Below are positions 17,281 to 59,981 of a stretch of DNA of 64,000 nt, piece by piece. Source of the DNA: Candidatus Magasanikiibacteriota bacterium (GTDB lineage Bacteria; Patescibacteriota; Patescibacteriia; Magasanikbacterales; GWA2-37-8); NCBI GenBank assembly GCA_017991415.1, contig JAGOQR010000001.1, forward strand, positions 109,385-173,384, read 5' to 3'. Each line of letters starts with the position of its first letter. Position 1 is the first letter of the stretch. Under the pieces are notes generated by a model. That model was not told where the DNA came from. It was given only the letters and a program-made list of their open reading frames with translations, and did no database searches. A program made the translations under genes and the position numbers.

Positions 17281-17372
17281 AAAGAAAAACTTGAAATCGT
17301 CAAAAAGCGCGCTCACCTGGGCGAGGCGGGCGGAATTCCTCCCCAACCCCCTCCTTCCGCCCGCTATTCCGT
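17281..17372 (+). repeat. Left copy of a ~90-bp GC-rich inverted repeat pair (partner at 59896-59981)
   Basis: AAAGAAAAACTTGAAATCGT...GGCGGGCGGAATTCCTCCCCAACCCCCTCCTTCCGCCCGCTATTCCGT. Contains a 9-bp GC stem CGGGCGGAA/TTCCGCCCG. About 88% identical to the reverse complement of 59896-59981. Confidence 0.8.
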
Positions 17373-17410
17373 TAAATCCGTTCGAATTTTCGTATATTCA
17401 CTGAACCAAT

Positions 17411-17444
17411 AAAAAAACAGCTATATAAGCTGTTTTTTTATTTT
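17411..17444. terminator. Intrinsic terminator
   Basis: AAAAAAACAGCTTATATAGCTGTTTTTTTATTTT-type hairpin (ACAGCT/AGCTGT stem) plus a T-run. Confidence 0.65.
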
Positions 17445-17509
17445 ATACACATGGCAATACTGCGCTCTAACTTATTGACACAGCGAATAATTTACTTTAT
17501 TTTATAGCC

Positions 17510-18160
17510 ATGGACATCAAAATCGAAATCCTCATCGGCGCTCCTACCTCGGTTCTGGGCGCCCTGGGTATTCGAGGCGCCAAGATTACCCTCACACCAA
17601 GGCAAAAGGGTAAGAGCCTCCCCCGCTTATGGATTGACAAAAAAGAGCACTTCTCCTACTTCTTCACCATCGAAGAGGCCCAAAAAGGACTAGACCGCAT
17701 CCTGATTTCTAGACCTAGGATTAAGATCAAGATTTTGCGGAGGCTGCGCAAAGCGGGTCTGTTCTGGGATATGGAGTCAGTCCTGTCCTACTGCCAGAAA
17801 CTCGCTGTTATCAAAGATTCAACATACGACTTCGTGAAGTGCACGCGTTGCGCCTACGCGTCGCTGGTGCCCCACGGCTGGATAGTCACAGAAGGGAAAC
17901 TGATCCAGACAAAGATTCCGATACTGCTCCACCAACAGGTCACAAACCTGAAAGACCTCATCTTTAGGTTCTGTGCCGAAGGAGTCTGGCTTGGCGAGAT
18001 CCCTCTCAAAGCAGCCCTTTGGGTGATCCATCAAGGCGCAAAGGCGCAAATGGGAGCAGACTCTCGAGGCCTTCTAAGACTGCTGCTACAAGACCCAATT
18101 CGACACCTCCGGGGGCCACTTCCAACAGACCACCACATCTGTCGCGAAACAGGTCCATAA
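17510..18160 (+). CDS. Hypothetical protein (high-GC island 2)
   Basis: 216 aa ORF at about 55% GC with no recognisable domain. TTGACA-N19-TTTTAT lies directly upstream and there is no SD. It is the least convincing of the seven high-GC islands. Confidence 0.4.
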   Translation: MDIKIEILIGAPTSVLGALGIRGAKITLTPRQKGKSLPRLWIDKKEHFSYFFTIEEAQKGLDRILISRPRIKIKILRRLRKAGLFWDMESVLSYCQKLAVIKDSTYDFVKCTRCAYASLVPHGWIVTEGKLIQTKIPILLHQQVTNLKDLIFRFCAEGVWLGEIPLKAALWVIHQGAKAQMGADSRGLLRLLLQDPIRHLRGPLPTDHHICRETGP

Positions 18161-18290
18161 ACTTCAATCTCTCTGTACGGGGAGATCGGCAATACCAATT
18201 TCAAGCGTGGAGGCCTTGAAAAAACCTTGTCAGCTGCCGCTACCAGCTGAAATTTCCAATGAATATCATGTATATCATGGTAACTGTTGG

Positions 18291-18330
18291 GAAAAAAACA
18301 TCCCATGTTTAGCATAGGATGTTTTTATTT
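18291..18330. terminator. Intrinsic terminator
   Basis: AACATCC...GGATGTT hairpin followed by TTTTATTT. Confidence 0.5.
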
Positions 18331-18411
18331 ACCTTTAATAAACAATTTTTGAATCATATGGTACAATAGGCGGACAATGCCTAGGCTTCATTAACTTAAT
18401 AATTACACTCT

Positions 18412-19059
18412 ATGGACTATAAAGTAATAACTCAAAAAATCTTAGATATTCATACCACAGAAGGTTTTGATGAAATTGATTTTACCGACCATTTAGAAGA
18501 TTTTTTTCATTTAAAATTGGAAGAAAAAATGCAAGTAACACAAGAACACATTATAGAAATAACTTATTTTATCTTCCAAGAAAAATCTGGTGTCATTAAA
18601 ATAGAAACATCGGAAATAGAAAATGATCCTACGTACTATGATAAAAAACGGGAGGAAGTAGATGACCAAGAAGAAGGTGCTCGTGAAATCAGCAATGACA
18701 ATGAACTAACCCCTATCGAAGTAATAATTGGCGGAGAAAAAGATATACTTTTATACCAACTACTTTCCAAATTTGATGAATTACGTGATGATTTTGAAGA
18801 AATAATACAAGGGATTGATACCAAAAAAGAAAGTACCTCTGAAACAGTACTCTTAATAGACAAAACATTAACAGCTTACGAAGCTCTCATACAAAAAATT
18901 ACTGGAAAAAAAGAAACTATTTTTGAAATTAAAAATTTACTAAACACCTACCTAAGAGAGTACGCAGCCGAAATACACCGAAAAGAAGAACCTTCTGACA
19001 TAAAACAAGAATTTCCTGAGGCAAAAGTAATTAGACTGCCTCCTTTCCTAAAGAAGTAG
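18412..19059 (+). CDS. Hypothetical acidic protein
   Basis: 215 aa, rich in Glu/Asp, with no motif recognised. Confidence 0.4.
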   Translation: MDYKVITQKILDIHTTEGFDEIDFTDHLEDFFHLKLEEKMQVTQEHIIEITYFIFQEKSGVIKIETSEIENDPTYYDKKREEVDDQEEGAREISNDNELTPIEVIIGGEKDILLYQLLSKFDELRDDFEEIIQGIDTKKESTSETVLLIDKTLTAYEALIQKITGKKETIFEIKNLLNTYLREYAAEIHRKEEPSDIKQEFPEAKVIRLPPFLKK

Positions 19060-19063
19060 CCCA

Positions 19064-19855
19064 CTAAAATTTCTTTCCTTCTAAAAATAGAAACAGTGGA
19101 AATTCTTTGCGAGCTTTATCTTCGGCAGCAAATCGAGGGCCGCGCGTTGGCTCTCGATGCGAGATCCACTCTTCGCATTTGGTTATACCAAAACCATTTT
19201 TACGAAACATTTTAAAATACCATTGAAGTGGTCGATGAAACGAAACTGTTTTTTCTGACTTTTTTTGACCTGGATGCATATCTATTTCTATTTTTGCCTC
19301 AGATAAATACTCATCCATACGACGATATTGCACTTTTATCTTTTCATCCCAACCCCAGCTAGAAATTTTTGGCCCACGAAATGCTGGGTGATTGAGCACT
19401 ACATACATGCTCCCCTTTTCTTTTAAAACTCGATTGCATTCTTGCAATACTCCGTCTACATTTTGAATGTTCTGTAGCGCAAGTACTATTAAAATAGAAT
19501 CAACAGAATTGTCTGCACAAAATTGAATATCATCGGCAGGAGAAACATAGTATTCTATATTTGTTTTGGCCAAGCCCCGTGACGAAGCATCTTTGGAAAT
19601 ACCACCGTGTTTTTTTGCTAAATTTATAAGCTCCGAAGAAATATCTGAAGCAATGACATAGGCTCCTGTTTCGGCAATCACTCGAGAAAAAAAGCCTTGC
19701 CCACATGCCAAATCTAAAACAACTTGGTTTTTACCCACATTCATAGAACGCATTAAATTTGGCAAAATAACTCGACTCTGAAACGAATCATCATCTTTTT
19801 CGAGCATGGTATCGTACCACTGCGCAACCTTACCCCAAGAGGTATTTTTTGACAT
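19064..19855 (-). CDS. Class I SAM-dependent methyltransferase
   Basis: SAM-binding motif I VLDLACGQGFFS. 263 aa. Confidence 0.75.
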   Translation of the reverse strand: MSKNTSWGKVAQWYDTMLEKDDDSFQSRVILPNLMRSMNVGKNQVVLDLACGQGFFSRVIAETGAYVIASDISSELINLAKKHGGISKDASSRGLAKTNIEYYVSPADDIQFCADNSVDSILIVLALQNIQNVDGVLQECNRVLKEKGSMYVVLNHPAFRGPKISSWGWDEKIKVQYRRMDEYLSEAKIEIDMHPGQKKSEKTVSFHRPLQWYFKMFRKNGFGITKCEEWISHREPTRGPRFAAEDKARKEFPLFLFLEGKKF

Positions 19856-19937
19856 AAAATAAGAATTAACAACAGGTCTATTCTAACCCAAATAAAGTCC
19901 ACCGTCAATCCAACAAACTTGCTAAAATAGGCTAAAA

Positions 19938-20807
19938 ATGATACTATTTTGCCATATGACACATATTATTGATGGCAAAAAAATTGCAACAAAAATAGAA
20001 AAAGAGGCTGCTAGGCAAGTAACCCTACTCAAGGCTCGAGGCATTGTGCCAAAACTAGCAGTTGTTTTGGTTGGTCAAGATAAGCCATCCCTTACCTATA
20101 TAAGCCGAAAAAAACAAGCCGCCGAACGAGTTGGCACTGATTTTGCCTTGCATCAATTTCCAAAAAATATTTCTAAAGAAGATCTCATTGCCGCTGTTAC
20201 AGACATTCAAAAAGATCCTGCTCTTACTGGCCTCATTATCCAACTTCCATTACCAGAACGATTGTACAACTCCGATGTTTTAAATACTATTAACCCTGCC
20301 ATTGATGTAGACTGTCTTACCGATAGCAATATTGGCAAGCTAGTCATGAAAACAAATCTTATAGAACCTCCGACTCCTTGGGCTGTAATTAAAACGCTCA
20401 AAGAAATAAAATTCAAATTAGCTGGTAAAAATATTACGATTGTTGGTGCAGGTGCACTGGTTGGCAAACCGCTGGCCATTATGATGGTAAACGAACTAGC
20501 AAGCGTAACAACCTGCAACAATCACACCCAAAATCTTAAAAAGAAATGTCTCGAAGCAGATGTAATAATTTCTGCTGTCGGCAAAAAAAATCTCATCACC
20601 GCCGATATGGTAAAAAAAGGTGCTATAGTAATTGATACAGGTATTGTCTATGTAGACGGCAAAATGCATGGCGATGTCGACTTCAGCCCAGTTGTCAAAA
20701 AAGCAAGCTTCATTACACCTACTCCAGGCGGTATTGGCCCTATTACCGTGGCCAAACTACTTCTTAATACAGTTACTTGCGCAAAAAAAATAAATAAGAT
20801 ACTGTAA
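19938..20807 (+). CDS. folD: Bifunctional methylenetetrahydrofolate dehydrogenase/cyclohydrolase FolD
   Basis: IIDGKKIA..., VGQDKPSLTYISRKKQAAERVG, and the NAD-binding TPGGIGPITVAKLL motif. The true start is probably the internal Met at ~19956 (MTHIIDGKK). Confidence 0.85.
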   Translation: MILFCHMTHIIDGKKIATKIEKEAARQVTLLKARGIVPKLAVVLVGQDKPSLTYISRKKQAAERVGTDFALHQFPKNISKEDLIAAVTDIQKDPALTGLIIQLPLPERLYNSDVLNTINPAIDVDCLTDSNIGKLVMKTNLIEPPTPWAVIKTLKEIKFKLAGKNITIVGAGALVGKPLAIMMVNELASVTTCNNHTQNLKKKCLEADVIISAVGKKNLITADMVKKGAIVIDTGIVYVDGKMHGDVDFSPVVKKASFITPTPGGIGPITVAKLLLNTVTCAKKINKIL

Positions 20808-20831
20808 AATAAAAGGAGGGCAACAACCGTC

Positions 20832-21077
20832 ATGTCAAGAAAAATGAGTGGCAAGGTTTACCTCTGGTGCACTGATTTTAGACACCCAAACAAATCCGAC
20901 AATGACTGCTCGGGCGAGCTCATCAATGTCGGAGGCGAAAACGGATCTATCATCGAAACCAGGCTGAGGTGCAATAACAACAAGTGTCAACGAGTTGTTA
21001 CAATTTCAGTCGCTGAGCTTGCGTCACTTATTGAGCAAATAAGACAGCGACGCTACCAAAAAAGCACCAAGGACTAG
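20832..21077 (+). CDS. Small zinc-ribbon-like protein
   Basis: 81 aa with a C-x12-C...C-x4-C arrangement, preceded by a strong SD AAGGAGG. Confidence 0.35.
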   Translation: MSRKMSGKVYLWCTDFRHPNKSDNDCSGELINVGGENGSIIETRLRCNNNKCQRVVTISVAELASLIEQIRQRRYQKSTKD

Positions 21078-21413
21078 GTGCGAAAGCGGGCAATATGGTG
21101 TGCGCAAAGAGTTTGTCGGATTCTCTGCAAAAACCGTCATCTTTTTTGCACAAACTAATATTTACATATTAATCCACATACTTAATTTGACACCAAAAAA
21201 TAGAGGTGTTAGGCTAAACATACAATTTAATATTATATATCTGTGGAAGTGAGGTTCAATTCCTCCACTGTGCCGCAACGGTAAACCCCGATTAAATCGG
21301 GGAAGTCCGATCTTCAGATATAAACCCTTCTAAAAAGGGTTTCGTCCCGAGCAGGAAACAAAAATATGTTTATTTTTTGAATCTTTCCTGTTCGGTAAAG
21401 ATTTTTTTGTTAT

Positions 21414-21995
21414 ATGAATAAATATATCCGTCGCACACTGCTCCTACTTATTTTTACTGCTGTTTCTGCTGCCGCCTACCTATTTTCTTCATCGCACCAG
21501 AATGCTTCTCCACCACCAAAACCTATTATACTCTCGCCTCAAACAAAAACTGAAAAATTAATACCTGCTGTTTTAGAAAATAAAAACAGCGAGGCGAATA
21601 CCAACACCAAGACATCCCCGCCCACAGCCACACAAAAAAATACAACTACAACTCCTACTCCACCCACCACCACAAACCAATCACCCAAGGAAATTTCTGA
21701 AACTATACCGATAACAATTGTTATTTCTGACACTTCTTACCCAATTCACGCATTACCCAACTCAACAGCCTATCAAGTAATGGATACACTGAGACAAGAA
21801 AACAAAATATCGTTCTCTACAAAAAACTTTTCTGGACTTGGCTACTTTGTCCAAGAAATTAACGGAATAAAAAATAGCCCGAGCACAGGTTTTTACTGGA
21901 CATTCTATATTAATAATCAAGAAGCAAAGGTAGGAATTTCAAACTACACAATCAAAGCAAACGATATACTTACTTGGAAATTTGAAAATAAATAA
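21414..21995 (+). CDS. Secreted/membrane-anchored hypothetical protein with a Thr/Pro-rich linker
   Basis: N-terminal hydrophobic signal, low-complexity TTTPTPPTTT region. 193 aa. Overlaps the next gene by 14 nt. Confidence 0.4.
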   Translation: MNKYIRRTLLLLIFTAVSAAAYLFSSSHQNASPPPKPIILSPQTKTEKLIPAVLENKNSEANTNTKTSPPTATQKNTTTTPTPPTTTNQSPKEISETIPITIVISDTSYPIHALPNSTAYQVMDTLRQENKISFSTKNFSGLGYFVQEINGIKNSPSTGFYWTFYINNQEAKVGISNYTIKANDILTWKFENK

Positions 21996-24210: not shown

Positions 24211-24226
24211 ATCATAATAAAAAACT

Positions 24227-24757
24227 ATGCAAAAATACCTTCCTGCTTTTCTACTAATTCTTCTTGGTATCACCTCCAGACTACTCCCTCACCCGGCCAA
24301 TTTTACTCCTATCGCTGCCATTGCCTTATTTTCTGGATTATACTTACCAAAAAAATTTGCCGTTATTATTCCCCTGCTCGCACTTATTGCAAGCGACTTT
24401 ATACTTGGCTCTTACATGTGGCAAGTAATGATAGCGGTGTACAGTAGCTTTATGGTTACCGCCTTTATCGGCTTAACAATCAAACATAATAAAAAATTAT
24501 CTACCGTAGTAGGCGGAACTCTATTTAGTAGCATCCTGTTTTTTATCACTACCAACTGGGCCGTCTGGGCATTTGGCACTATGTACGCGCATACTACAAA
24601 CGGCCTCATCCAAAGCTACCTTATGGCCTTACCATTCTTCAAAAATAGCTTACTCGGTGATTTGTTCTATACAGGCATTCTTGTTGGCGCCATGGAACTT
24701 ATACAATATTCTATTCTTAACAAAAATAAACAGTCTGCAAGCGAAGTAATCGCCTAA
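24227..24757 (+). CDS. Polytopic membrane protein
   Basis: 176 aa with about 5 TM helices. Confidence 0.45.
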   Translation: MQKYLPAFLLILLGITSRLLPHPANFTPIAAIALFSGLYLPKKFAVIIPLLALIASDFILGSYMWQVMIAVYSSFMVTAFIGLTIKHNKKLSTVVGGTLFSSILFFITTNWAVWAFGTMYAHTTNGLIQSYLMALPFFKNSLLGDLFYTGILVGAMELIQYSILNKNKQSASEVIA

Positions 24758-24763
24758 TAAATA

Positions 24764-24796
24764 AAAAAGACTTTGCAATTGCAAAGTCTTTTTTAT
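24764..24796. terminator. Bidirectional intrinsic terminator
   Basis: Perfect palindrome AAAAAAGACTTTGCAATTGCAAAGTCTTTTTT between convergent genes. Confidence 0.8.
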
Positions 24797-26200: not shown

Positions 26201-26473
26201 GTAGAAAAATTAATGCTTAAGGATTGATATGATACCGCCGTAAATTATAAACATACCAAAGACAGTCCACCACCACCCAAAATCACTCGAAATCCATCCG
26301 CTATAATAAGCTAATACGCAGATAATAGTGGCGCACATGGCAGTTAAATGACGAATTGTATCATCTGACATAGAAATTGATTAAATACAAGCGAGTTATT
26401 TGCTTATTATTGTAACATATTTTTAAGCAAAACAAAAACCTGTCTTTTGGACAGGTTTTTGTTTTTTAAAGAG

Positions 26474-49713: not shown

Positions 49714-49735
49714 TATAAAAATATTAAATTTTTCT

Positions 49736-50107: not shown

Positions 50108-50138
50108 CCATCACTATTACTATCAGTAAATATAAAAA

Positions 50139-50178
50139 CACCTCGCATTTCTGCAAGGTGTTTTTATATTTTTGTAAG
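50139..50178. terminator. Intrinsic terminator
   Basis: AACACCTCGCA-tttc-TGCAAGGTGTT with one mismatch, plus TTTTTATATTTTT. Confidence 0.6.
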
Positions 50179-50266
50179 AGACCTCCGTATCTATAGACAT
50201 AATTTCATATACCCATAGATACGCAAGGAGGCCTCCTGGAAACAACGGCGTTGCCGTGTCGCCCGC

Positions 50267-50740: not shown

Positions 50741-50864
50741 GCCTCCAGGTAATGCCGACTACACCATGCAGTCGAACAAAAGAGCATAACACAAAAACAA
50801 GCTCTGGTCAAGCCTGCAAGAAGAATAATTAAGAAGACCGCTACAAATTTTAGCCACTCATATC

Positions 50865-51491
50865 TTACCTTGTACTAAGAACTGTGGTATCACCCTTGGA
50901 TTCATGTTCTTTTTTATGAGCTATTAAATCAGAAATAATTTTTACCACAACAAGCACCACAACCATAGACTGCGGTAAACGCCAAACAATAATTGCTGCC
51001 GCGCCCAACAACACCGTAAATTGCATTACAAAAATTCTTTTATACGGTTTCTCCATAAGATACTTAAAACTTTCCTTGTTCAATGGCTGTAAATATTTTT
51101 TATTGGAGATATAATTTACAAAAAATGAATAGGCATGACTGAGACATAATGAAAATAGCCCCCAACGAATTAAAGGTATATTTTGAAATATTTCAACTAT
51201 CTGCTTCATCACAGGACCATAATCAAATCGTCCCAAAAAGAAAACAATGACAAAAAAGTGCGCGCCCATAAAAGCGCCGAAATGCACCATAAAAGCAAGA
51301 GTAGCGATTAATTTTGGGTTGGCAGGAACGCCTTGTCGATCAGACTCAGAAAGAGGCATCAATACTAATTGAACAAGAGTAAAAAAGCCAATAACCGCGC
51401 TCTCCACCCAATAGAGAAAGACAGTTTCAAACACATTCCAGCCAAAAAACAAAACACCTACCAAGGGTATGCAATTGGTGAGTATGAGCAT
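50865..51491 (-). CDS. Polytopic membrane protein
   Basis: 208 aa with about 6 TM helices. Confidence 0.45.
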   Translation of the reverse strand: MLILTNCIPLVGVLFFGWNVFETVFLYWVESAVIGFFTLVQLVLMPLSESDRQGVPANPKLIATLAFMVHFGAFMGAHFFVIVFFLGRFDYGPVMKQIVEIFQNIPLIRWGLFSLCLSHAYSFFVNYISNKKYLQPLNKESFKYLMEKPYKRIFVMQFTVLLGAAAIIVWRLPQSMVVVLVVVKIISDLIAHKKEHESKGDTTVLSTR

Positions 51492-51695
51492 TTGCGAAGA
51501 AGTGATTATTTTTTGAATATGCGTGTAATTAGAAAATAAAACTACCTAAGTAGGTTACCCCATAATCTGACTATTAACAAGGACAGTTATTTTCCAGCAT
51601 TGCAGTGACTATATGAAAAATTACAAAGAAATTTATATTATCATTCGCTTGTAACTATCCATATCCAATATTTACAATCTGCAAACAAGAATACA

Positions 51696-51780
51696 AAATA
51701 AAAATAGCTCTATATTCTAGAGTTATTTTTATTTGCAGGCCTTGCAGGATAAGATTGAAACATTTTTTGCTTATTTGCAA
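51696..51780 (+). repeat. Array repeat copy H (terminator hairpin plus conserved box)
   Basis: AAAAATAGCTCTAtattcTAGAGTTATTTTTATTTGCAGGCCTTGCAGGATAAGATTGAAAC... matches the family consensus ...TTATTTTTATTTGCAGGCCTTGTGGGATGAGAGCGAAAC... Confidence 0.7.
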
Positions 51781-51781
51781 A

Positions 51782-53371
51782 TTACTGTTCCACGGTAAAG
51801 ATAACTGGCTCTGATCGAGTGCCGATATAAGTCGCAGGCCCAACTGGCATTACCGTAACCTCGTAGGCATGGCGGCCGCCAGGAGCAAAATCAACGAGCG
51901 GTACAAGAACGGACAAATCAATAGTGTCTTTGATATTCCACCATGGATCATTAATCGAACAAGTCATGCAGGATATCACTACTTGATAACGCGTAGCCGC
52001 GTCTGCCCGTGTCCACGCTATTCTAACTGCGCCATCTTTGCCCATAAAATTATCTCCGGGTACAGGGGCAGTGATGGTTGGTTGAGTATTAAGTACAGTG
52101 GTTGATTGTGAACCCGAAGAATCTATAGTGTATAGACGATAATCAGACCACGGCCCCCAAATTCCAGATAGCGAATAACCACGAGCTCGAGTGCGGCAGG
52201 TAGCATCATAACTAATTGCAAAATTCGCCGTACGCAACAAAATTTCTTCCGTAGTAATATCGGAAACAAGACTATACTGCGACAAATCGTTTGGGCGCGC
52301 ACATTCGGTAGTCACTTGATATTTAATAGCGCCCTGCACCCACCCCCAAGCAATAGTAACCATGCGATTAGAGTTAGCAAACACCTGTCCAGAAACAGGC
52401 AAATCAATTGTTGGGGCGACCACATTAATTACAGAAGTATCAACCGTAAATGGCACATATTCAGACCAATTACCAAGCACACCAAATTTATCAACTGCCC
52501 GGATTCGCATGCGGAAGGTACCATCGCTGCCTAAAAATAGACCAGTAAAAATATTGGTAGCGCCCTGATTAGTTTCAGCCGCTGACACGGAATACGGTCG
52601 GTCATAGGCAATCCAGCAATCTGGCGTTCTCCAATCTACACAACGGTAATGATTGGTTTCAATAATATATTTGTCTGCTCCTGGTACCGCCGTCCATACC
52701 GGATCTAAATCTCTTTCCATGCCAGTAACTGGTTTGACTACCTGATTGTTATATGGAGTTACAAAACGCGGCGCAGGCAATACCGCTGGTTGGATGGCCT
52801 GAGGAGGCGTCACGGGAACCGAGACTGGTATAGACGGTTTTATTGACACAGCTCCGGATGAATTGTCTGTAATTGGTTTTTTGGGATCAGCTATTGTTTT
52901 GCGCGTAGCCCGGGAAATGCCAGTAACACGAAGCTTAATGTATGTATCATTTTTAGCATCATAAATAGCAAAGACACCGTTGCGAACTGCGTTAAGAGCT
53001 GTGGTCTCATACCCGTTCGTACCGATTTTTGGAATTGCAGCCGTAAAATACGGCAAACGAATAATACTATTGCCTTTACCCGGCTCTATTTGGGCAATAC
53101 CTTTTTTATTACTTATGAAAAAAGTAGCTGCGGCTGGTCCCGTCGTTTTTCCTCTAAAAACATTTTGCCCAGCTTTAGTATTAGCACCATTATAAGTAAG
53201 AGTAATATTTTTAGAAATCTGATTGCCTGCTTCTCCGGAATTTAGATAATAGGTAAAGCTAACAGTGCCGCTATAAACATACGTTGCTGCTGCAGCTGCT
53301 TTTGCATTTGCAAATAAGCATACAACTGCTAGCACAGCTGTTACCCCCATCCACGCTCGTACTTTTTTCAT
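51782..53371 (-). CDS. Secreted protein with three fibronectin-III-like repeats
   Basis: Signal peptide. Repeats WTAVPGADKYIIE / IAWGWVQGAIKYQVT / IAWTRADAATRYQVVI. 529 aa. Confidence 0.5.
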   Translation of the reverse strand: MKKVRAWMGVTAVLAVVCLFANAKAAAAATYVYSGTVSFTYYLNSGEAGNQISKNITLTYNGANTKAGQNVFRGKTTGPAAATFFISNKKGIAQIEPGKGNSIIRLPYFTAAIPKIGTNGYETTALNAVRNGVFAIYDAKNDTYIKLRVTGISRATRKTIADPKKPITDNSSGAVSIKPSIPVSVPVTPPQAIQPAVLPAPRFVTPYNNQVVKPVTGMERDLDPVWTAVPGADKYIIETNHYRCVDWRTPDCWIAYDRPYSVSAAETNQGATNIFTGLFLGSDGTFRMRIRAVDKFGVLGNWSEYVPFTVDTSVINVVAPTIDLPVSGQVFANSNRMVTIAWGWVQGAIKYQVTTECARPNDLSQYSLVSDITTEEILLRTANFAISYDATCRTRARGYSLSGIWGPWSDYRLYTIDSSGSQSTTVLNTQPTITAPVPGDNFMGKDGAVRIAWTRADAATRYQVVISCMTCSINDPWWNIKDTIDLSVLVPLVDFAPGGRHAYEVTVMPVGPATYIGTRSEPVIFTVEQ

Positions 53372-53477
53372 ATAAATTGGTTATATAAACTATGGCTGCT
53401 ATAATAGCACGATTCAAAATTCTGAACAATTAATATAAATACTAAAAACTTGTCGTTGATACGATAGCTTAGCTTAC

Positions 53478-53530
53478 AAAAAATCACTTAGCAGGCATTG
53501 TGGGATGAGATAGGAACTTATTTGGCTAAG
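53478..53530 (+). repeat. Array repeat copy A (conserved 40-nt box only)
   Basis: GCAGGCATTGTGGGATGAGATAGGAACTTATTTGGCTAAG. The TAG of GGCTAAG is the stop codon of the 53526-53963 gene. Confidence 0.7.
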
Positions 53531-53963
53531 ATATAGGGTACAAAACATACCAAGGGCTATTCGGCAACTGCTTTCTAACTCCAGCTCTTACTCTATCTAT
53601 ACTAGGAAAATCATACCAAGGATCAACCCAACCACCCTTCACTCTTAACAAGTAATGACCGATAGGATACTTGGTATTTTTGACTATTAAGGTAATAGAG
53701 CCTTCAATTTTAGAAAATTTATCGGCTTCTTGTAGGTTTATTTTGTATCTTTTGTTTTGATTGAAAAACTTACTTTTATAATCTAGGTTGTGAGTTTTTA
53801 AATATTTAACAATATCAAAAATCTTTATACCTTTTTCAATGGTATAAAATTTACTCTCAAAATCTTTTTTAACCTCATCGTAAGATTTATTTAATAGATT
53901 AGCTAAACAAGCGATCCCGCAGCCATTTATATCTTTTTGATGTTGGGGTTTTATCGGAGCCAT
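53526..53963 (-). CDS. Papain-like cysteine peptidase domain protein (C39-like)
   Basis: QHQKDINGCGIACLANLL matches the catalytic Cys context of C39/bacteriocin-processing peptidase domains. 145 aa stand-alone. Confidence 0.45.
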   Translation of the reverse strand: MAPIKPQHQKDINGCGIACLANLLNKSYDEVKKDFESKFYTIEKGIKIFDIVKYLKTHNLDYKSKFFNQNKRYKINLQEADKFSKIEGSITLIVKNTKYPIGHYLLRVKGGWVDPWYDFPSIDRVRAGVRKQLPNSPWYVLYPIS

Positions 53964-53971
53964 ACAGGGAT

Positions 53972-54676
53972 TTAGGAAACTACTTTATAGATGATATGTA
54001 GGTAGGAATTCTTAAGTTTTTGTACCTTGTCTAAACTTAAGGTTTTAATATATTTTAAATCGCTGTCTTTGCGCAAAGAAAGTCCGTCAACTAAAGAAGG
54101 GGTGTCTTTGCCGCCTACTATACATGGAACCACTACCACGGACAGCCGGTCAATAAGTCCTTTTCTAAATAATTCAGCATTCATACTCCCGCCGGATTGT
54201 AGAGTAATTTTTTTCATTTTAAACTTTTCTTTAAGATCAATAAATAATCTTGTTAAATCAACCTTTTTTGAATGAAATACGACTTCTAAATTATTTAGGT
54301 TGCGCATCATAAATGCCGAATGCTGCTTATTGGTAGTAACCAATATTAACCGCTTCACCCATTTTGTTAAATACAAGACACCTTTATCGGTCAGATGTGG
54401 TTTATTATCTACAATAATAAAAGTGCAAGGTGATTTTATCTGCGGTTCTTTTTTAGTGTTAACACCGATCTTGGCCATTACCCGACCTGTGTTAAATGAA
54501 TTAATATCCGTCGTTTTCTCAATATCATAATACTGATACAAGCCCTCTTTTACTCCCTTCACCTTTTTTAGATCAATATCAAAATCCCTGGAATCAATAT
54601 CTCCGGTTGATATTTTACCGTCTGCTGACATTAACATATACAGCGTTGTTTTGGGCGTATTTTTTGGCATGTACAA
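53972..54676 (-). CDS. Dihydrofolate reductase-like / RibD C-terminal domain family protein
   Basis: YMLMSADGKISTGD and C-terminal SGG...GLIDRL pattern. The track start is TTG; a likely ATG lies at 54670. Confidence 0.55.
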   Translation of the reverse strand: MYMPKNTPKTTLYMLMSADGKISTGDIDSRDFDIDLKKVKGVKEGLYQYYDIEKTTDINSFNTGRVMAKIGVNTKKEPQIKSPCTFIIVDNKPHLTDKGVLYLTKWVKRLILVTTNKQHSAFMMRNLNNLEVVFHSKKVDLTRLFIDLKEKFKMKKITLQSGGSMNAELFRKGLIDRLSVVVVPCIVGGKDTPSLVDGLSLRKDSDLKYIKTLSLDKVQKLKNSYLHIIYKVVS

Positions 54677-54751
54677 AAATTAATAATTAGTACATATACA
54701 ATGCCATTTATATTTTATATTGCAAGCCCGTTTATCCACATGGTTCTAGAT

Positions 54752-54826
54752 AAGAATAACCGCTTGGTTAAGCGACTATTTTTCTGTGCAGGCCTTGTGG
54801 GATGAGAGCGAAACTTATTTGGTTAA
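54752..54826 (+). repeat. Array repeat copy B
   Basis: AATAACCGCTTGGTTAAGCGACTATTTTTCTGTGCAGGCCTTGTGGGATGAGAGCGAAACTTATTTGGTTAA. Confidence 0.75.
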
Positions 54827-54842
54827 AAATGAAGATTAAAAT

Positions 54843-55556
54843 TTATTGCATAATCCTCTGAATCTCATTTTTTAGATGTTCGGCTGACCAACCAATCAAT
54901 AACCTTCCCTGCTCTTTGTCCACTACCCATTTTGGGTGCCTATCATGAATTCCATCTTTACTAAAATCTTTAAGCGGGTGCTTATCATCCCAATCATACC
55001 CAATATCTTTCTTAGGATAGTTAGCTGGCGGTACAGTTACTAGGTCCTCATCAATAGCCAGCACCATAGAAGTTTCAGTATTCCCTGCATGATCATCTAC
55101 CGGCCCATTAATCAACTCCATTGTTTTCTGCAAGACTGGCTCTGGATCAAGAGTTATATAATGTAATTTTACTGATCCTAACTCTGCGGTATATTTTTCA
55201 ATAAAACGATCAATCGTGCCTAGATTACCTCCATGCCAGGATATAAAAATAATGTTACTTGCATAATCCTTGAGCGACATAGAAATATCTCGAAGCATAA
55301 GCATTAGGGTTTCTTTTTCAACCCATACAGTGCCAGGAAAACCAATATGTTCTTTGGAACAAGTAATCTCTAGTGTTGGTAAGAAAATTGCTTCAGGGCA
55401 TTCTTTAATGGCTTTTTCCAACATAGCATTCTGGCAATAAGTATCTGTACCGATTGGTAAAAAAGGGCCATGCTGTTCGGTGGCACCCATTGGTAAAACA
55501 AATGTATATTTCTTTTCTTGATTGAAATCAGTTGTTTTGAGTTCTTTTAACAACAT
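54843..55556 (-). CDS. Creatininase-family amidohydrolase
   Basis: LPMGATEQHGPFLPIGTDT signature plus metal-binding His/Asp/Glu. 237 aa. Confidence 0.75.
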   Translation of the reverse strand: MLLKELKTTDFNQEKKYTFVLPMGATEQHGPFLPIGTDTYCQNAMLEKAIKECPEAIFLPTLEITCSKEHIGFPGTVWVEKETLMLMLRDISMSLKDYASNIIFISWHGGNLGTIDRFIEKYTAELGSVKLHYITLDPEPVLQKTMELINGPVDDHAGNTETSMVLAIDEDLVTVPPANYPKKDIGYDWDDKHPLKDFSKDGIHDRHPKWVVDKEQGRLLIGWSAEHLKNEIQRIMQ

Positions 55557-55584
55557 ACTAATTAAAATAATTATTGAGCCATGG

Positions 55585-55717
55585 TTATTCTATCTTTTCA
55601 GCTAATGGTAGTCAATTCGGTTCTAAATTTAGAAAAGGATATAAAAATAACCGCCTGATTAAGCGATTATTTTATTTGCAGGCGTTGTGGGATGAGAGCG
55701 AAACTTATTTGGCTAAG
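55585..55717 (+). repeat. Array repeat copy C (full: promoter, hairpin and box)
   Basis: On the minus strand, TTGACT (55610-55615) N17 TAGAAT (55587-55592) sits ~30 nt upstream of the 54843-55556 start. Then hairpin AAAAATAACCGCCTGATTAAGCGATTATTTT and box GCAGGCGTTGTGGGATGAGAGCGAAACTTATTTGGCTAAG, which ends 18 nt from the stop of the 55735-56337 gene. Confidence 0.8.
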
Positions 55718-55734
55718 AATGAAGAACAATTTTT

Positions 55735-56337
55735 CTAACTTACCCTTACAAAACCTAGTCGCTTTCGATATATCGAAAAAATCAACGCTACATTAGCTAT
55801 TAGTAGATATACTTGAAATGCCGAATTTACAATATCCCATTTTGGTATAGAAGGTAAAACTAACAATACACTGATAAGACTGGCAATAAAAAGATAACCT
55901 GATTCAGTTTCTGGATATTTCCAGGCTTTAACAATTGTAGGTAGAGTGGCAAGCCCATCACCTAATGCGGCAAATAAGATAGCCAAAGCTGGAGAATCAA
56001 TAACGAGCCAGATAATTAAGGCAATAATCGAACAAACTCCGCATAAAGAATCGAACAATGTTAATTTCCAATAACTATTTTTATTTACAAAAGAAACAAT
56101 AAATACGATAAGCGGAATAAAACCTGCAATAAAAATTCTAGATGTTGCCCATAAATCAGCTTGGGCCGAAAAAGCCGCAAATGCTCCGACGAGCGATGCA
56201 AATGCCCATAAACTCCACGAGATACGATTTGGTTTTGTCTTTCCTTTAAGCGTATCTTTAATATAACTGACCGAACCTGAGATGCTAATAACTGCACTTA
56301 CAACAACCAACCAATGAACAAAGGAAATACCAAACAT
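55735..56337 (-). CDS. Integral membrane protein
   Basis: 200 aa with about 6 TM helices. Confidence 0.45.
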   Translation of the reverse strand: MFGISFVHWLVVVSAVISISGSVSYIKDTLKGKTKPNRISWSLWAFASLVGAFAAFSAQADLWATSRIFIAGFIPLIVFIVSFVNKNSYWKLTLFDSLCGVCSIIALIIWLVIDSPALAILFAALGDGLATLPTIVKAWKYPETESGYLFIASLISVLLVLPSIPKWDIVNSAFQVYLLIANVALIFSIYRKRLGFVRVS

Positions 56338-56354
56338 AACATGTAAATAGGAAT

Positions 56355-56491
56355 GATACCTATTCTATCTTTTTTGCTAACCTTGGTCAATTTGGTTCCA
56401 AAGTAATAAAAGGATATAAAAATAATCACTTGGTTAGGCGGCTATTTTTGTTTGCTCCATTTGTGGGACGAGGTTAGAACTTGTTTGGCTA
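56355..56491 (+). repeat. Array repeat copy D (full, more diverged)
   Basis: Minus-strand promoter TTGACC-N17-TAGAAT, then hairpin AAAAATAATCACTTGGTTAGGCGGCTATTTTT and box GCTCCATTTGTGGGACGAGGTTAGAACTTGTTTGGCTAA. The TAG within the box is the stop codon of the 56489-57067 gene. Confidence 0.75.
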
Positions 56492-57067
56492 AATCTTAAT
56501 AAGATTAATATAATTGGCCAACTCTTTAAGCGCGATAGGTAAATCAATAAAGCCATCGGCTTCGGTAATATGTCCTGCATTATGTAGTGTTATTATTCTT
56601 GACCCAAGTTCACTAAACTTTTCTTTGTTTTTGCTGAATGCACCATACGGGTCATTGTCTGAAATAACTAATACAGATTGAGGTAAAAGTTGTTTTACTT
56701 GGGCTATATTAATTGGAGTTGTTAGCCATGGTTTTGCTATCTCTTTCACTTTGTCATTTTCAAGATTCTCTAAATCAAACCAACCTGCCACAAAAACAGC
56801 ACCTCCAACAGGCGCATTAACGGTTTCCAGATAACGAAGAATAGTTTGGCAGCCAATACTGTGCCCAACAAAGTAAGTATCTTTATCTGGTTTACCGACT
56901 AAACTGGCAAGGTAAGTAACCCACCGTTCAATGACTGGAGTATTGGTATCTGGCATCTCAGGAATAAAAACTAGATGCCCTAATTTTTCCAACTCGGCTT
57001 TTAACGAAGGCAGCCAATCTTTTTCTGGACTTCCTTCCCAACCGTGGATAATAAAAATTCTTTTCAT
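56489..57067 (-). CDS. Alpha/beta hydrolase (RBBP9/YdeN-like serine hydrolase family)
   Basis: IFIIHGWEGSPEKDW...VGHSIGC nucleophile elbow. 192 aa. Lies 6 nt downstream of the NUDIX gene, so probably in an operon with it. Confidence 0.6.
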   Translation of the reverse strand: MKRIFIIHGWEGSPEKDWLPSLKAELEKLGHLVFIPEMPDTNTPVIERWVTYLASLVGKPDKDTYFVGHSIGCQTILRYLETVNAPVGGAVFVAGWFDLENLENDKVKEIAKPWLTTPINIAQVKQLLPQSVLVISDNDPYGAFSKNKEKFSELGSRIITLHNAGHITEADGFIDLPIALKELANYINLIKI

Positions 57068-57073
57068 ATTAAT

Positions 57074-57628
57074 TTAAGCTCTGCCACTTCCATTTAAATA
57101 GTTCCATGCCTTCAAAATAAGCACACAGCTTTGGCCATGAGTAATCTTACTGTCCATAACCATTTGAACTGCTTTAGCTAACGGCAATTTAATGTGGGTA
57201 ATAATTTCAGTGCCTTCAAAGGCGGTATTAGTAAATGAGAGGCCTTTAGCTAGAAACAAATTTGCAGGTGAAAAGACAACACTGGTAAACGGATCCATTT
57301 TTCCGAGTTTTACCCAATTCTTTGCTATGCAGCCTAACTCTTCTTGCAATTCTCGTTTAGCTGCTTTAAGAATAGACTCGCCTTCATCGATAGCACCGCT
57401 AAATACCTCAACACTATTTTTACCGATTGCGTATTTGAATTCTTTGGTTAAGTATATATTTCCTTCTTCATCCATAGGCAGGATTGATACCCCAGGAACC
57501 ATCTCTACAATACCAAAGATTCCTGGATTACCATCTGGTCGTACTACCTGGTCTTCATGGACACTTATCCATTTATTTTTATATTTTATAGTGCTGCTTT
57601 TGATTTTCCATGGGCCATGCTTTTTCAT
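57074..57628 (-). CDS. NUDIX hydrolase
   Basis: Nudix box GAIDEGESILKAAKRELQEELG. 184 aa. Confidence 0.8.
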   Translation of the reverse strand: MKKHGPWKIKSSTIKYKNKWISVHEDQVVRPDGNPGIFGIVEMVPGVSILPMDEEGNIYLTKEFKYAIGKNSVEVFSGAIDEGESILKAAKRELQEELGCIAKNWVKLGKMDPFTSVVFSPANLFLAKGLSFTNTAFEGTEIITHIKLPLAKAVQMVMDSKITHGQSCVLILKAWNYLNGSGRA

Positions 57629-57660
57629 ACGAATAGGATTGAATTATTAACTTGTTTATT

Positions 57661-57789
57661 CTATCGTTTCGGCTAAGTATAGTCAATTTGGTTCGAATCC
57701 TATTGCCCCGTACAAAAATAACCGCTTGGTTAAACGATTATTTTTATTTGCAGGCCTTGTGGGATGAGATTGGAACGTATTTGGCTAAC
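57661..57789 (+). repeat. Array repeat copy E (full)
   Basis: Minus-strand TTGACT-N17-TAGAAT upstream of the NUDIX start, then hairpin AAAAATAACCGCTTGGTTAAACGATTATTTTTAT and box GCAGGCCTTGTGGGATGAGATTGGAACGTATTTGGCTAAC. Flanked by GGCTAAG (57671) and GGCTAAC (57783). Confidence 0.8.
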
Positions 57790-57858
57790 CTATAACAATC
57801 ACCAATTTAACTTTCCTTCATAATCTGTTAGAATACGTAAGAAAATAATAAACTTACT

Positions 57859-58716
57859 ATGTGGTTTCTTTTGTCTTTAGGCTCCGCTTTTTTTGATTCA
57901 CTTAAGGATGTAACCGCCAAAATTGTCTCAAAGGAAATTGACGCTTACACAGTCGCGTGGGCTAATCGTTTCTTTGGTCTTATTTTTATTCTTCCGGTCA
58001 TGCTCTTTAACATCCCGAATCATCTTGGCATAGAATTTTGGAAAGCTCTAGCTGTAGTTGGCGTACTTAATTCCATTAATTCTGTTCTGTACATCAAAGC
58101 TCTCAAGGATACACCCCTATCAATTGTTACCCCTATTACTTCTTTAACGCCCATTACTGTGTTACTTTTTTCATCCATCCTTGCCTCAGAAACACCTTCA
58201 CTCGTTGGCTTTTTAGGAATTATTATAGCGGTCATAGGCACCTATGTGTTACAAATCAGTCAGCGCCATACTGGTTTTTTAAAACCGCTCACCTCTCTAT
58301 GGACAAATGTTGGACAGCGGTATGTATTTATTGTTGTGATATTATGGGGCATCACATCAGTATTTGATAAAATTGCCATACAGCACTCTAACCCACTCTT
58401 CTATTTAGGCGCTGCTAATATTGTTTATACACTCGCCCTATTTCCATTTGTTATTTTTAAACCAGGACGTTTACAAATCGCAATTACAAATTATAAAAAA
58501 TTTCTTCCTGTTGGATTCTTTTATGCTGTTTCTACTGGACTGCAGTTTTTAGCTTTACCGTTTACTTTAGTATCATACGTTTTATCAATAAAACGTGCAT
58601 CGAGTGTATTTGGAGTAATATGGGGTAAATTCTTTTTCAACGAAACGAATTTAAGAGAACGAATGTTTGGATCATTAATAATAATTGCTGGCGTTATATT
58701 AATCATATTTGCTTAA
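57859..58716 (+). CDS. EamA/DMT-family transporter
   Basis: 285 aa with 10 TM helices in the duplicated EamA pattern. It is the only plus-strand gene in the array. Confidence 0.7.
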   Translation: MWFLLSLGSAFFDSLKDVTAKIVSKEIDAYTVAWANRFFGLIFILPVMLFNIPNHLGIEFWKALAVVGVLNSINSVLYIKALKDTPLSIVTPITSLTPITVLLFSSILASETPSLVGFLGIIIAVIGTYVLQISQRHTGFLKPLTSLWTNVGQRYVFIVVILWGITSVFDKIAIQHSNPLFYLGAANIVYTLALFPFVIFKPGRLQIAITNYKKFLPVGFFYAVSTGLQFLALPFTLVSYVLSIKRASSVFGVIWGKFFFNETNLRERMFGSLIIIAGVILIIFA

Positions 58717-58790
58717 AAAAATAACCGCTTGGTTGAGCGATTATTTTTGTTAGCAGGCCTTGTGGGATGAGATCGGAACTTATTTAGCTA
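58716..58790 (+). repeat. Array repeat copy F
   Basis: AAAAAAATAACCGCTTGGTTGAGCGATTATTTTTGTTAGCAGGCCTTGTGGGATGAGATCGGAACTTATTTAGCTAA. Begins at the EamA stop codon and acts as a convergent terminator. Confidence 0.75.
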
Positions 58791-58814
58791 AAAACATTGA
58801 TTAATTCTTACAAT

Positions 58815-59636
58815 TTATACTTCAAACTCTAAAATAAGTGGTAGATGATCTGAAATCGGCACATCAGGAACACTAAAATTAACGGGCTTAATACCACTAG
58901 AGACAAAAGCATAGTCTGCAAACTCTTGCCAACCATTAGGCCCAACACCATAGTGGGGATATAATTTTTTAAAAAGACTTCCACGGGTAGTTTTTATAGA
59001 AAATTCTTTAATCAAATTACGAAGACCTACTTTCTCAAACATGGCAATACTTTCCGTGTTTGGCAATAAGTTAAAGTCCCCAGTGATGATTCCTTCACCA
59101 TTCTCTCTTGTTATAAAATCTATAATCTTTTTCGATTGAATAAGGCGCTCATTTGTATCTAACTTATTCCCTGGCTCAGAGGTACCGTGCACATTACAAA
59201 CTGTAATGAGTTTATTATTAACAGCTAGCTGAAGATATTGCAGATTACAAGGAAGGGTAGAAAAATCTTTATAATCAAAGGAGTTTAGTTCTTTGAAAAT
59301 AAAAAACTCTCCGCTTTTTTTAATAGAATAATCTTTTTTAATAAAAACTGCCAAACCTGAATTAATTCCCGGGGCTTTAATAAGGGTTTGATCAAAATTT
59401 TCTTGAGCCAAACCGAAAAATCCTTGATGTTTATTTAAAATCTTTTGCACCTGTTTAAATAAATCTGCTCGATACCCTTGATTTTCAGAAATATTTTTAT
59501 TATTATCTAACATTTCCTGTAAACAAAATATATCAATAGTGTCGGCATTTACTCTAATAAAGTCTATGAGCGGCTCAAATATCTTACCGCCGTAGGTATT
59601 TAACGATATAATCTTCATACTTTTAAAACTTGACAT
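58815..59636 (-). CDS. Endonuclease/exonuclease/phosphatase (EEP) family protein
   Basis: N-terminal ...DIFCLQE (catalytic Glu), ...TGDFN..., C-terminal SDHLP. 273 aa. An alternative start Met lies at 59618. Confidence 0.6.
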   Translation of the reverse strand: MSSFKSMKIISLNTYGGKIFEPLIDFIRVNADTIDIFCLQEMLDNNKNISENQGYRADLFKQVQKILNKHQGFFGLAQENFDQTLIKAPGINSGLAVFIKKDYSIKKSGEFFIFKELNSFDYKDFSTLPCNLQYLQLAVNNKLITVCNVHGTSEPGNKLDTNERLIQSKKIIDFITRENGEGIITGDFNLLPNTESIAMFEKVGLRNLIKEFSIKTTRGSLFKKLYPHYGVGPNGWQEFADYAFVSSGIKPVNFSVPDVPISDHLPLILEFEV

Positions 59637-59649
59637 TGATTACGAATCT

Positions 59650-59760
59650 TATTCTATCTTTGTTAACCTACTTTAGTCAATAATCAGTTTTTTTCACAAC
59701 TATGCGCCCCTATAAAAAATAACCGCTTGGTTAAGCGGCTATTTTGTTTGCAGCGGGGAT
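59650..59760 (+). repeat. Array repeat copy G (promoter and hairpin, box absent)
   Basis: Minus-strand TTGACT-N18-TAGAAT upstream of the EEP gene, then hairpin AAAAAATAACCGCTTGGTTAAGCGGCTATTTTGTTTGCAG. The sequence then diverges. Confidence 0.7.
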
Positions 59761-59895
59761 ACGAAAAATTACGAGGGGAATTTATATTGGAAATGAGTGA
59801 GTAAAATGGATTAGCGGCAGTTGCGCCAAGTTTACTTGGTTGCAACCTGACGATGAGACATTTTCGAGCGAATGACAATATATGGTTTACCTATA

Positions 59896-59981
59896 CGGAA
59901 TAGGACGGGCGGAAGGAGGGGTTGGGGGAGGAATTCCGCCCGCCCACCGGCGCACTTTTTACGATTTCAAGTTTTTCTTTG
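59896..59981 (-). repeat. Right copy of the ~90-bp GC-rich inverted repeat pair (partner at 17281-17372)
   Basis: Reverse complement reads AAAGAAAAACTTGAAATCGTAAAAAGTGCGCCGGTGGGCGGGCGGAATTCCTCCCCCAACCCCTCCTTCCGCCCGTCCTATTCCGT. Lies 14 nt downstream of the CHAP gene stop. Confidence 0.8.

Follow-up and report, generated by a model that had tools for sequence, protein, structure and literature searches.

The stretch of DNA analysed here, 64,000 nucleotides (nt) of a contig from a Candidatus Magasanikiibacteriota bacterium (JAGOQR010000001.1, positions 109,385 to 173,384; hereafter the window), carries two inverted copies of a GC-rich, hairpin-bearing repeat that lie 42.6 kb apart. These repeats are likely to be the conserved distal-end modules of separate islands, members of a family that targets tRNA 3' ends in Patescibacteria by means of a large serine recombinase (LSR). 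The left copy forms the distal (attR) end of an island at a tRNA-Gln gene. A 6.6-kb restriction-modification/defence-helicase island, 48 nt downstream of a tRNA-Trp gene, has the right copy as its distal end. Loci for comparison, numbered L0xx, include those collected by an exact 20-mer scan of one genome per species, to which a metagenome scan was added.

Two end modules and their tRNA-linked islands

The first-pass annotation had placed the repeats at 17281-17372 and, as the reverse complement, at 59896-59981, and these positions are correct to within 1 nt. A global alignment of the two segments gives 79 identities in 95 columns (83% with gaps, 95% ungapped) and contains five indels of 1, 4, 2, 1 and 2 nt. 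Perfect identity between the copies extends over at most 20 nt; two 20-mers, GGCGGGCGGAATTCCTCCCC and AAAGAAAAACTTGAAATCGT, are each found once on either strand of the window and nowhere else in it, against chance expectations from shuffles of 0.00 and 0.01. GC content is 57% in the repeat and 72% in its hairpin, compared with 39% for the window. The match of ~90 bp that was first described is real, but the homology is longer, reaching 17406 on the left and running from 59995 down to 59749 on the right, and the full modules minus a 111-nt insertion align over 147 columns at 72% identity. As had also been noted, each copy lies shortly after a gene stop (TGA at 17291-17293 for a small transmembrane open reading frame (ORF), TAA at 59994-59996 for a CHAP gene), and the right copy abuts a cassette-like gene array, whose span of 51723..59748 adjoins the module end at 59749. 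Across its family the module is a mosaic of a 5' segment (modA or modB), a core made up of AAAAAGCGCGCC and the hairpin, and a 3' part (mod3) that comprises TATTCCGT and an arm of ~35 nt. The two copies in the window are built as follows.

17281..17406, + strand: left copy, full end module; its end at 17406/17407 is fixed by the empty site in L056
17281-17301, + strand: left modA, identical to LSR codons ~34-40
17302-17324, + strand: left spacer with a small 5-bp hairpin
17325-17365, + strand: left GC hairpin, 11 bp, 19-nt loop
17364-17372, + strand: left CTATTCCGT
17373-17406, + strand: left terminal arm, ending ...CACTGAAC
59749..59995, - strand: right copy, full end module; identity break with L029/L026 exactly at 59749
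59995-59961, - strand: right modA, 35 nt, 100% identical to LSR codons 28-40
59945-59903, - strand: right GC hairpin, 12 bp, 19-nt loop
59902-59895, - strand: right TATTCCGT
59784..59894, - strand: 111-nt insertion between TATTCCGT and AAATTCC, which splits the right copy
59783-59749, - strand: right terminal arm, ending ...CCCCGCTGCA

The extent of the left island is set by a comparison of filled and empty sites. In a contig from another sample (L056), which was retrieved through the gene at 17510-18160, a tRNA-Gln that is 100% identical to 14653-14726 continues without a break into 17403-18627 (97.8% identity), with CCTCGGAAC running straight into CAATAAAAAACAGC at the junction and the terminator hairpin lying directly 3' of the tRNA. 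Positions 14727-17406 are therefore inserted DNA, 2,680 bp in length, that separates tRNA-Gln from its own terminator, and the bases GAAC are common to attB, attL and attR. The filled site recurs at 100% identity in a further sample (L053). GC skew is positive only at 15001-17000 (+0.07 and +0.16), which corresponds to this island, and negative elsewhere in the window. Among close relatives (L029, L005 and L056 compared with the window) island content varies while the flanks are conserved; L005, for example, is without the gene at 16646-17056, for which an exact-protein look-up returned nothing on record.

14655..14726, + strand: tRNA-Gln(CUG), attachment site of the left island, with attL at 14726/14727
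14727..14795, - strand: LSR 3'-end relic, antisense, abutting the tRNA-Gln end (blastn, tblastn)
14727..17406, + strand: tRNA-Gln island, 2,680 bp, with a 4-bp ambiguity at GAAC (empty site L056)
15465-16160: helix-turn-helix (HTH)+SocA/Panacea gene (Pfam)
16150-16542, 16646-17056 and 17137-17293: ORFs without assigned function
17413..17444, + strand: native tRNA-Gln terminator hairpin, moved 2.68 kb; the chromosomal flank (B') side of attR

The left copy has no inverted partner in its island, whose tRNA-proximal end is instead the LSR relic. By blastn this relic matches the junction of LSR 3' end and tRNA in L018, as well as L005, and by tblastn it corresponds to LSR residues 455-495. Another locus (L028) reads ...GCTGAAC followed at once by AACTTTGAATGGG, so that the arm is joined directly to LSR-end sequence of the kind found in the left attL relic, and we infer that such a joint represents attP. 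The circle junction of an excised tRNA-Gln island would correspondingly read CACTGAAC followed by AACTCTGAAAAAGCC.

For the right copy, the tRNA-Trp gene had been predicted beforehand to lie past the window edge, and it was found there in L051, a contig that is 100% identical to 58902-64000 and continues 2.7 kb further. The 3' two-thirds of the gene are present (Rfam tRNA, 44.8 bits), in direct orientation with the arm and 6.7 kb from the right copy. Beginning at tRNA-Trp, the order in L051 is a 48-nt terminator-containing spacer, an inverted and decayed hairpin copy with modB, a control protein, a type II methyltransferase of the EcoRI_methylase family, the type II restriction enzyme, the PDC-S53-type helicase, CHAP and the right copy; everything between the restriction enzyme and tRNA-Trp lies beyond 64000. 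The decayed copy is a third one in the same genome, ~2.5 kb past the right window edge (L051 113-189, equivalent to ~66.5 kb in the window). It is degenerate, and it forms the inverted partner of the right copy at a distance of 6.55 kb, a layout of inverted copy, cargo and copy that is also seen in L024, L037 and L042.

59749..64000, - strand: in-window part of the tRNA-Trp island, its distal end being the right copy
59994-60776: CHAP/SH3 gene
60878-63682: PDC-S53-type SF1 helicase, full-length, 1308 bits; an exact-protein look-up found nothing on record
From within the window to beyond 64000: type II restriction enzyme gene (GmrSD_N/HNH), whose start is in the window
Window 60878-64000 and L051 381-5845: span of the defence cargo

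The distal boundary of this island emerges from a break in identity. L029 (part of contig OBEQ011600154.1, 16.9 kb) is 99.76% identical to 59894-64000, and L029 and L026 are both 100% identical to the arm (59749-59784). Past the last arm base, L029 has no array and is 68-78% identical to 32.7-47.1 kb of the window, collinear and in the same orientation. A break at exactly this point implies that the CHAP/helicase side is a segment that is mobile or was transferred recently and that ends precisely at ...GCTGCA. The 111-nt insertion is missing from L029 and L026, whose flanking sequence is 99.7% identical, whereas L009 has it at ~83-95% identity. It resembles a small hairpin element that has recently been mobile. 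A related insert of ~72 nt sits in the opposite orientation inside modB of L011 (~2886-2957).

The two window copies are thus not partners, since each is in a separate tRNA-linked island, and their opposite orientation follows solely from that of the tRNA genes, tRNA-Gln lying on the + strand and tRNA-Trp on the - strand, with both modules pointing away from their tRNAs. Inversion had been raised as a possibility in the first-pass annotation; on this proposal, homologous or site-specific recombination at the copies would flip the intervening 42.6 kb, so that two orientations exist. Their inverted arrangement, length (~90-125 bp) and similarity would suit such a role, and several assemblies break there, L054 beginning at 17283 and L052 stopping at 59966, which would fit alternative junctions but equally any multi-copy repeat. 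All contigs that span a copy nevertheless keep the arrangement of the window (L053 and L051 at 100% identity, L029, L010, L005 and L022). GC skew is negative inside and outside the segment with no sign change at either copy, and the interior encodes FolD, SecDF, SecA and a DEAD-box helicase in addition to the array, with the presence of SecA, SecDF and FolD identifying the 42.6 kb as chromosome backbone rather than an element. Efficient RecA recombination usually needs ~23-27 bp of identity, and the 20-nt tract shared here is shorter. We also considered as an inversion product a contig (L009) in which a homologue of the 16646-17056 gene adjoins the array side of the right copy; the metagenome-assembled genome (MAG) to which it belongs has, in addition, another copy of the left type whose flanks are conserved (L005), so the gene is simply terminal in different islands. 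We found no evidence of inversion among the related contigs, although a rare subpopulation with the inverted form could be excluded from reads alone, and we regard this proposal as very improbable.

The module family and an associated large serine recombinase

The scan of one genome per species yielded 16 true copies in Patescibacteria MAGs, with Magasanikbacteria, Paceibacterota, Saccharibacteria and several unclassified or oddly labelled MAGs as hosts, and two or three copies per contig were frequent. Six further matches were due to chance in GC-rich coding DNA, as was the sole match among the viral contigs searched with the 20-mer, which also lies in coding DNA. The metagenome scan added 27 loci, mostly from groundwater, and the number of distinct copies in total is 47. 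The suggestion that the pair might be two copies of a mobile element is thus upheld to the extent that further copies exist and are tied to mobile DNA. Nucleotide identity of the module across different Patescibacteria classes is ~90-95%, and modules occupy orthologous positions in L005, L022 and L010 although identity of the flanking genes is no more than 67-80%. Downstream of the arm, solo copies have a terminator hairpin resembling those that follow real tRNA genes. Several module-bearing MAGs (L005, L009, L013, L017 and L022, from CAZLNR01, CAZQSS01, CAZVNO01 and CAZHFX01) are labelled 'uncultured Gammaproteobacteria'; nucleotide identity to window genes is ~80% for L005 and 66-69% for L022, and the label looks doubtful because the other relatives of these MAGs found here are Patescibacteria.

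The module is tied to the recombinase through its own sequence. Its modA segment is identical over 18-37 nt to codons 28-40 (KEFAVKEKLEIV) of a gene that is intact in nine loci and encodes a protein of 482-495 amino acids, whose Resolvase, Recombinase and Zn_ribbon_recom domains identify it as an LSR. A modB-core-mod3 unit lies just upstream of the intact gene in each of the nine loci. Where the end of the gene is visible, its 3' end runs into that of an oppositely oriented tRNA gene (6/6 loci), so that the recombinase lies inside the island next to the tRNA, and the last LSR codons are supplied by the antisense tRNA across the junction. Four loci (L011, L024, L032 and L033) have tRNA-Trp in this position and two (L018 and L037) tRNA-Asn, and the terminal arm ends in ...GCTGCA/G in the Trp loci and in ...GAGCCA in the Asn loci, a concordance with tRNA identity that holds in all six. 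Directly past the arm, the final 77-78 nt of the LSR gene are repeated in inverted orientation; this repeat is 100% identical to the locus's own LSR end in four loci and differs between them. The resulting unit is placed exactly between the tRNA 3' end and the terminal arm of the module.

L018 3838-5425: LSR unit with inverted repeats
L024 6051-7667: LSR unit with inverted repeats, LSR at 6180-7667
L033 1043-2678: LSR unit with inverted repeats
L037 79-1707: LSR unit with inverted repeats, LSR at 112-1587

These relationships suggest how the module may work. In its sense orientation it would stand at the far end of an island as a succession of LSR-gene segment, GC hairpin and ~35-nt arm, with the last bases of the arm forming the predicted crossover point. 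The arm would imitate the end of the target tRNA, ...GAAC for tRNA-Gln, ...CTGCA for tRNA-Trp and ...GAGCCA for tRNA-Asn, and it would serve as a recombinase half-site, that is, the P arm of attP. Since the window encodes no LSR, the enzyme would presumably act on the window islands in trans.

A number of observations weigh against this interpretation. No LSR gene was detected in the window by tblastn or next to tRNA-Trp in L051, and the mobility of these particular islands therefore stays putative. The left arm shares with tRNA-Gln only GTTCGAAT and the terminal GAAC, a resemblance reached by 551 of 2000 shuffles, so that mimicry of tRNA-Gln by this arm, taken alone, is not significant and was set aside; the resemblance of the right arm to tRNA-Trp is modest (40/2000). 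The right island is separated from the tRNA-Trp crossover by the 48-nt spacer with its terminator, and no empty site for the right copy was seen among related contigs. L029, which defines the distal boundary, might conceivably be a chimeric assembly at the repeat; L026, a different record, is identical to it over all 1,982 nt of L026, junction included. Finally, any role of the recombinase-gene segments at the ends of islands is putative, as is that of the hairpin.

These segments also stand out within the LSR gene itself. In a codon alignment of six LSR genes (L011, L018, L024, L032, L033 and L037) third-position identity is 0.57 overall, and it rises to 0.87 in codons 31-40, 0.94 in codons 41-50 and 0.80 in codons 51-60, with further peaks at codons 411-430 (0.82-0.86) and 451-460 (0.85). 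All of these except 411-430 cover the source segments of modA and modB, a 7-bp hairpin between them (GCCTCGC-TTT-GCGAGGC) and the start of the 78-bp repeat. Such raised identity at synonymous sites implies that nucleic-acid elements are embedded within the gene. Given the LSR-derived segments and these conserved windows, island interiors resemble circular permutations of the LSR gene broken at the small hairpin, and both breakpoints look as if they had been fused to the large GC hairpin. A crossover inside the small hairpin was tried as the source of the modA-hairpin junction and rejected: the observed junctions are without both hairpin arms, so conservative recombination there fails to reproduce them. 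One could go further and suppose an undescribed system in which the embedded elements (codons ~31-58, with the 7-bp hairpin, and ~442-460) double as functional ends of cargo islands, the GC hairpin is a site of structure-specific recombination or docking that works jointly with the LSR unit, bounded by its perfect 77-78-bp inverted repeats, and single-gene cassettes accrete at tRNA genes in integron-like fashion through a serine rather than a tyrosine enzyme. We consider this more elaborate scheme unlikely.

Other features of the family raise the possibility that the module of ~130 bp moves by itself, as a small non-autonomous repeat akin to miniature inverted-repeat transposable elements (MITEs) or repetitive extragenic palindromes (REPs), and that its location at island edges is secondary. 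It is multi-copy, it bears a hairpin, and it lies at contig ends in many assemblies. In six loci (L003, L007, L031, L032, L041 and L045) the hairpin comes after the stop codon that closes another conserved ORF end (..W..KIRT.F..*), and in Saccharibacteria-type loci the loop is flipped relative to modA, as it is in L007, L041 and L045; together these give the hairpin at least three 5' flank contexts. Moreover, inserts of 111 nt and 37 nt, found in some copies, clearly hop into and around the module. Set against this, the sole comparison of a filled with an empty site has the whole 2.68-kb island inserted with the module at its end, no target-site duplication or short pair of terminal inverted repeats bounds a single module, the arm co-varies with the type of neighbouring tRNA, and module positions are orthologous in L005, L022 and L010. 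A free-standing repeat of this kind therefore appears quite unlikely to us.

The 37-nt insert is a two-hairpin module, TGAAATGTAGTAACATTTCACCACGAACCAATTCGTG, that interrupts modA at a fixed point in ~10 copies, among them the following three.

L005 1850-1886: 37-nt module in modA
L021 5836-5872: 37-nt module in modA
L022 226-262: 37-nt module in modA

A partial 37-nt module is also present in the window at 60827-60848, just upstream of the CHAP gene, an arrangement that looks as though CHAP had entered between this fragment and modA.

The GC hairpin

The GC stem around a C-rich loop that the first-pass annotation described is real, with 11 bp in the left copy, 12 bp in the right copy and a loop of 19 nt in each. 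The accompanying idea of a regulatory RNA fared less well. According to that idea the repeat would be a structured RNA with the hairpin as its core, such as a small RNA, a riboregulator or a mimic of the anti-Shine-Dalgarno sequence. Some properties would fit: the stem is stable; the loop, which includes two CCUCC motifs, is strongly conserved; folding of the right copy is more stable than that of its shuffles (z = -2.9); and single substitutions in the stem are mostly changes from G-C to G-U. The left copy, by comparison, reaches only z = -0.95, the third copy in the same genome has three G-to-A changes in the hairpin that leave bases unpaired, and one copy (L043) has lost the hairpin entirely. 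An Rfam scan of the window at gathering thresholds, which covered the left copy, reported tRNA only, and a scan of L051 at E<=1, which covered the right and third copies, reported tRNA and two chance-level matches elsewhere. None of the 12 stem pairs shows a compensatory change among 25 distinct hairpin sequences, in which 96% of cells pair, and the covariation score (0.067) equals that of shuffles (0.071), a weak test because the 5' arm was fixed by the search pattern used to collect the copies. No promoter or terminator frames the module as a unit, and the module always stands at an island edge, at no fixed distance from any one type of gene. We thus see very little chance that it is a regulatory RNA.

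A simpler function would be that of a transcription terminator or insulator behind cargo genes, conserved for that reason alone and with no part in recombination. Both window copies and many related loci follow a stop codon, in L031 and L032 the hairpin comes directly 3' of the stop of the conserved ORF end, and on the antisense strand the hairpin region is succeeded by GCGCGCTTTTT. The geometry, however, is not that of a canonical terminator. The loop is 19 nt long, the sense tail is CCUAUUCCGU with no U-tract adjoining the stem, and the antisense T5 run lies 11 nt away from it; a terminator consensus scan did not call the main hairpin on either strand. Genuine A-run/hairpin/T-run terminators adjoin the modules instead, at 17413-17444 and 59715-59745. 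Termination would also leave the precise island boundaries, the co-variation with tRNA type and the ~95% identity across classes without an account, and as a sole function we find it doubtful.

If the modules are island ends, as we favour, the hairpin sits 45-60 nt inside the crossover and thus outside the minimal att site. Most probably it would serve to block or terminate transcription at the edge of the island and, in the circular form, that of the LSR gene; the unsuitable loop, tail and T-run just described count against this role as well. Alternatively, it may be an accessory protein-binding site.

Two other candidates were discarded. A peptide-coding repeat was considered, as one frame is open through both copies, and is ruled out by the indels of 1, 4, 2, 1 and 2 nt. 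A connection between GAATTC in the hairpin and the EcoRI-family methyltransferase was likewise dropped, GAATTC occurring 17 times in the window against ~17-21 expected.

The cassette-like array and relation to known systems

The array next to the right copy consists of ~8 units of one or two genes on the - strand (51723..59748). Each unit ends in a repeat of ~130 nt that contains a partial tRNA-Trp 3' half (...GGCCTGCA), a bidirectional terminator in the form of A-run, hairpin and T-run, and a sigma70-like promoter (TTGACT-N17/18-TAGAAT). When the repeats are compared with tRNA-Trp, 2-10 of 1000 shuffles score as well. The cargo comprises Exo_endo_phos, EamA, NUDIX, a serine hydrolase, creatininase, RibD_C and a C39-like protein, which are unrelated accessory functions. 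A module next to such an array is also found in three other genomes (L009, L010 and L037), and the number of units ranges from none in L029 through one in L010 and at least two in L009 to the ~8 of the window. By analogy, the array could represent successive integrations at one tRNA-Trp site, the pattern to be expected if it arose as in the tycheposons discussed below.

An array of small genes separated by repeats invites comparison with integrons. The right copy heads units of one or two genes with unrelated functions, mostly in one orientation and with repeats of ~130 nt, as in integron arrays. Unlike those, it shows no tyrosine recombinase IntI: the 39 window ORFs scanned with Pfam contain no Phage_integrase domain, and the enzyme associated with the family is a serine recombinase. 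Inspection of the module and the array repeats, made with no formal attC model, revealed no inverted GTTRRRY cores and hence no R''/R' pairs (RYYYAAC...GTTRRRY), and direct GGCTAA/GCCTGCA instead; the array repeats differ from attC in being partial tRNA-Trp plus terminator plus promoter. With neither IntI nor inverted core sites, the integron reading was rejected.

The closest parallel that we have found is with the tycheposons of Prochlorococcus. In the passages of that work considered here, these are described as elements that insert at tRNA 3' ends, are flanked by a full and a partial tRNA, and carry variable cargo that includes defence genes; they form tandem accretions with scattered partial tRNAs and degenerate recombinase fragments, and an LSR is present in 27 of 937 islands of this type (Hackl et al., bioRxiv 10.1101/2020.12.28.424599). 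The islands described here share with them, as far as those passages go, the location at tRNA 3' ends, the variable cargo with its defence genes, and the tandem accretion with scattered partial tRNAs and recombinase remnants. They differ in their host, which is Patescibacteria rather than cyanobacteria, and in having a distal module of ~125 nt that is 90-95% identical across classes and includes a GC hairpin and a copy of a recombinase-gene segment. They differ too in often having an inverted second copy on the tRNA-proximal side, and in the LSR unit with its perfect 77-78-bp inverted repeats. The same passages mention none of these structural features. It thus seems reasonable to view these islands as a Patescibacteria analogue of tycheposon-type islands whose end module is unusually long and peculiar.

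With respect to the recombinase, the family resembles LSR systems such as phiC31, Bxb1, TP901-1, SCCmec Ccr and TnpX/TndX in its Resolvase/Recombinase/Zn_ribbon_recom architecture, in its precise junctions with few shared bases (GAAC in the left island) and in having the recombinase gene adjoin the att site. Classical LSR att sites are ~40-50 bp in length, and we know of none with a long conserved accessory region. At the att sites predicted here, by contrast, conservation runs ~125 nt inward and includes the hairpin, and the last codons of the LSR come from the tRNA across the junction, again unlike classical LSR elements. There is also a likeness to REPs, bacterial interspersed mosaic elements (BIMEs), Correia repeats and MITE-like repeats, which the module recalls as a dispersed, multi-copy, GC-rich hairpin in AT-rich intergenic DNA that breaks assemblies. 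It departs from REPs, BIMEs and Correia repeats in that the sole checkable case is not a stand-alone insert and in being tied to the edges of islands and to a family of recombinases, and the ORFs scanned contained no RAYT/TnpA-like gene.

Candidate phyla radiation (CPR) bacteria have tiny genomes and few characterised mobile elements, and our literature search for cassette or serine-recombinase systems in Patescibacteria found nothing specific. The locus offers a concrete route by which defence and accessory genes may be exchanged in CPR bacteria, resolved to the base by one pair of filled and empty sites: small islands would be put into tRNA 3' ends by a dedicated LSR family, and the array would reflect accretion at tRNA-Trp. 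LSRs with known att sites are wanted as tools for genome engineering, and the data predict natural attB/attP pairs for tRNA-Gln, tRNA-Trp and tRNA-Asn. For the assembly of Patescibacteria MAGs, the module is both a recurrent breaker of contigs and a useful marker of island edges. Elsewhere in the window, upstream of DnaX, 10287-12845 encodes an 852-amino-acid protein with coupling-protein domains of type IV secretion systems (T4SS), namely T4SS-DNA_transf, TrwB_AAD_bind and TraG-D_C.

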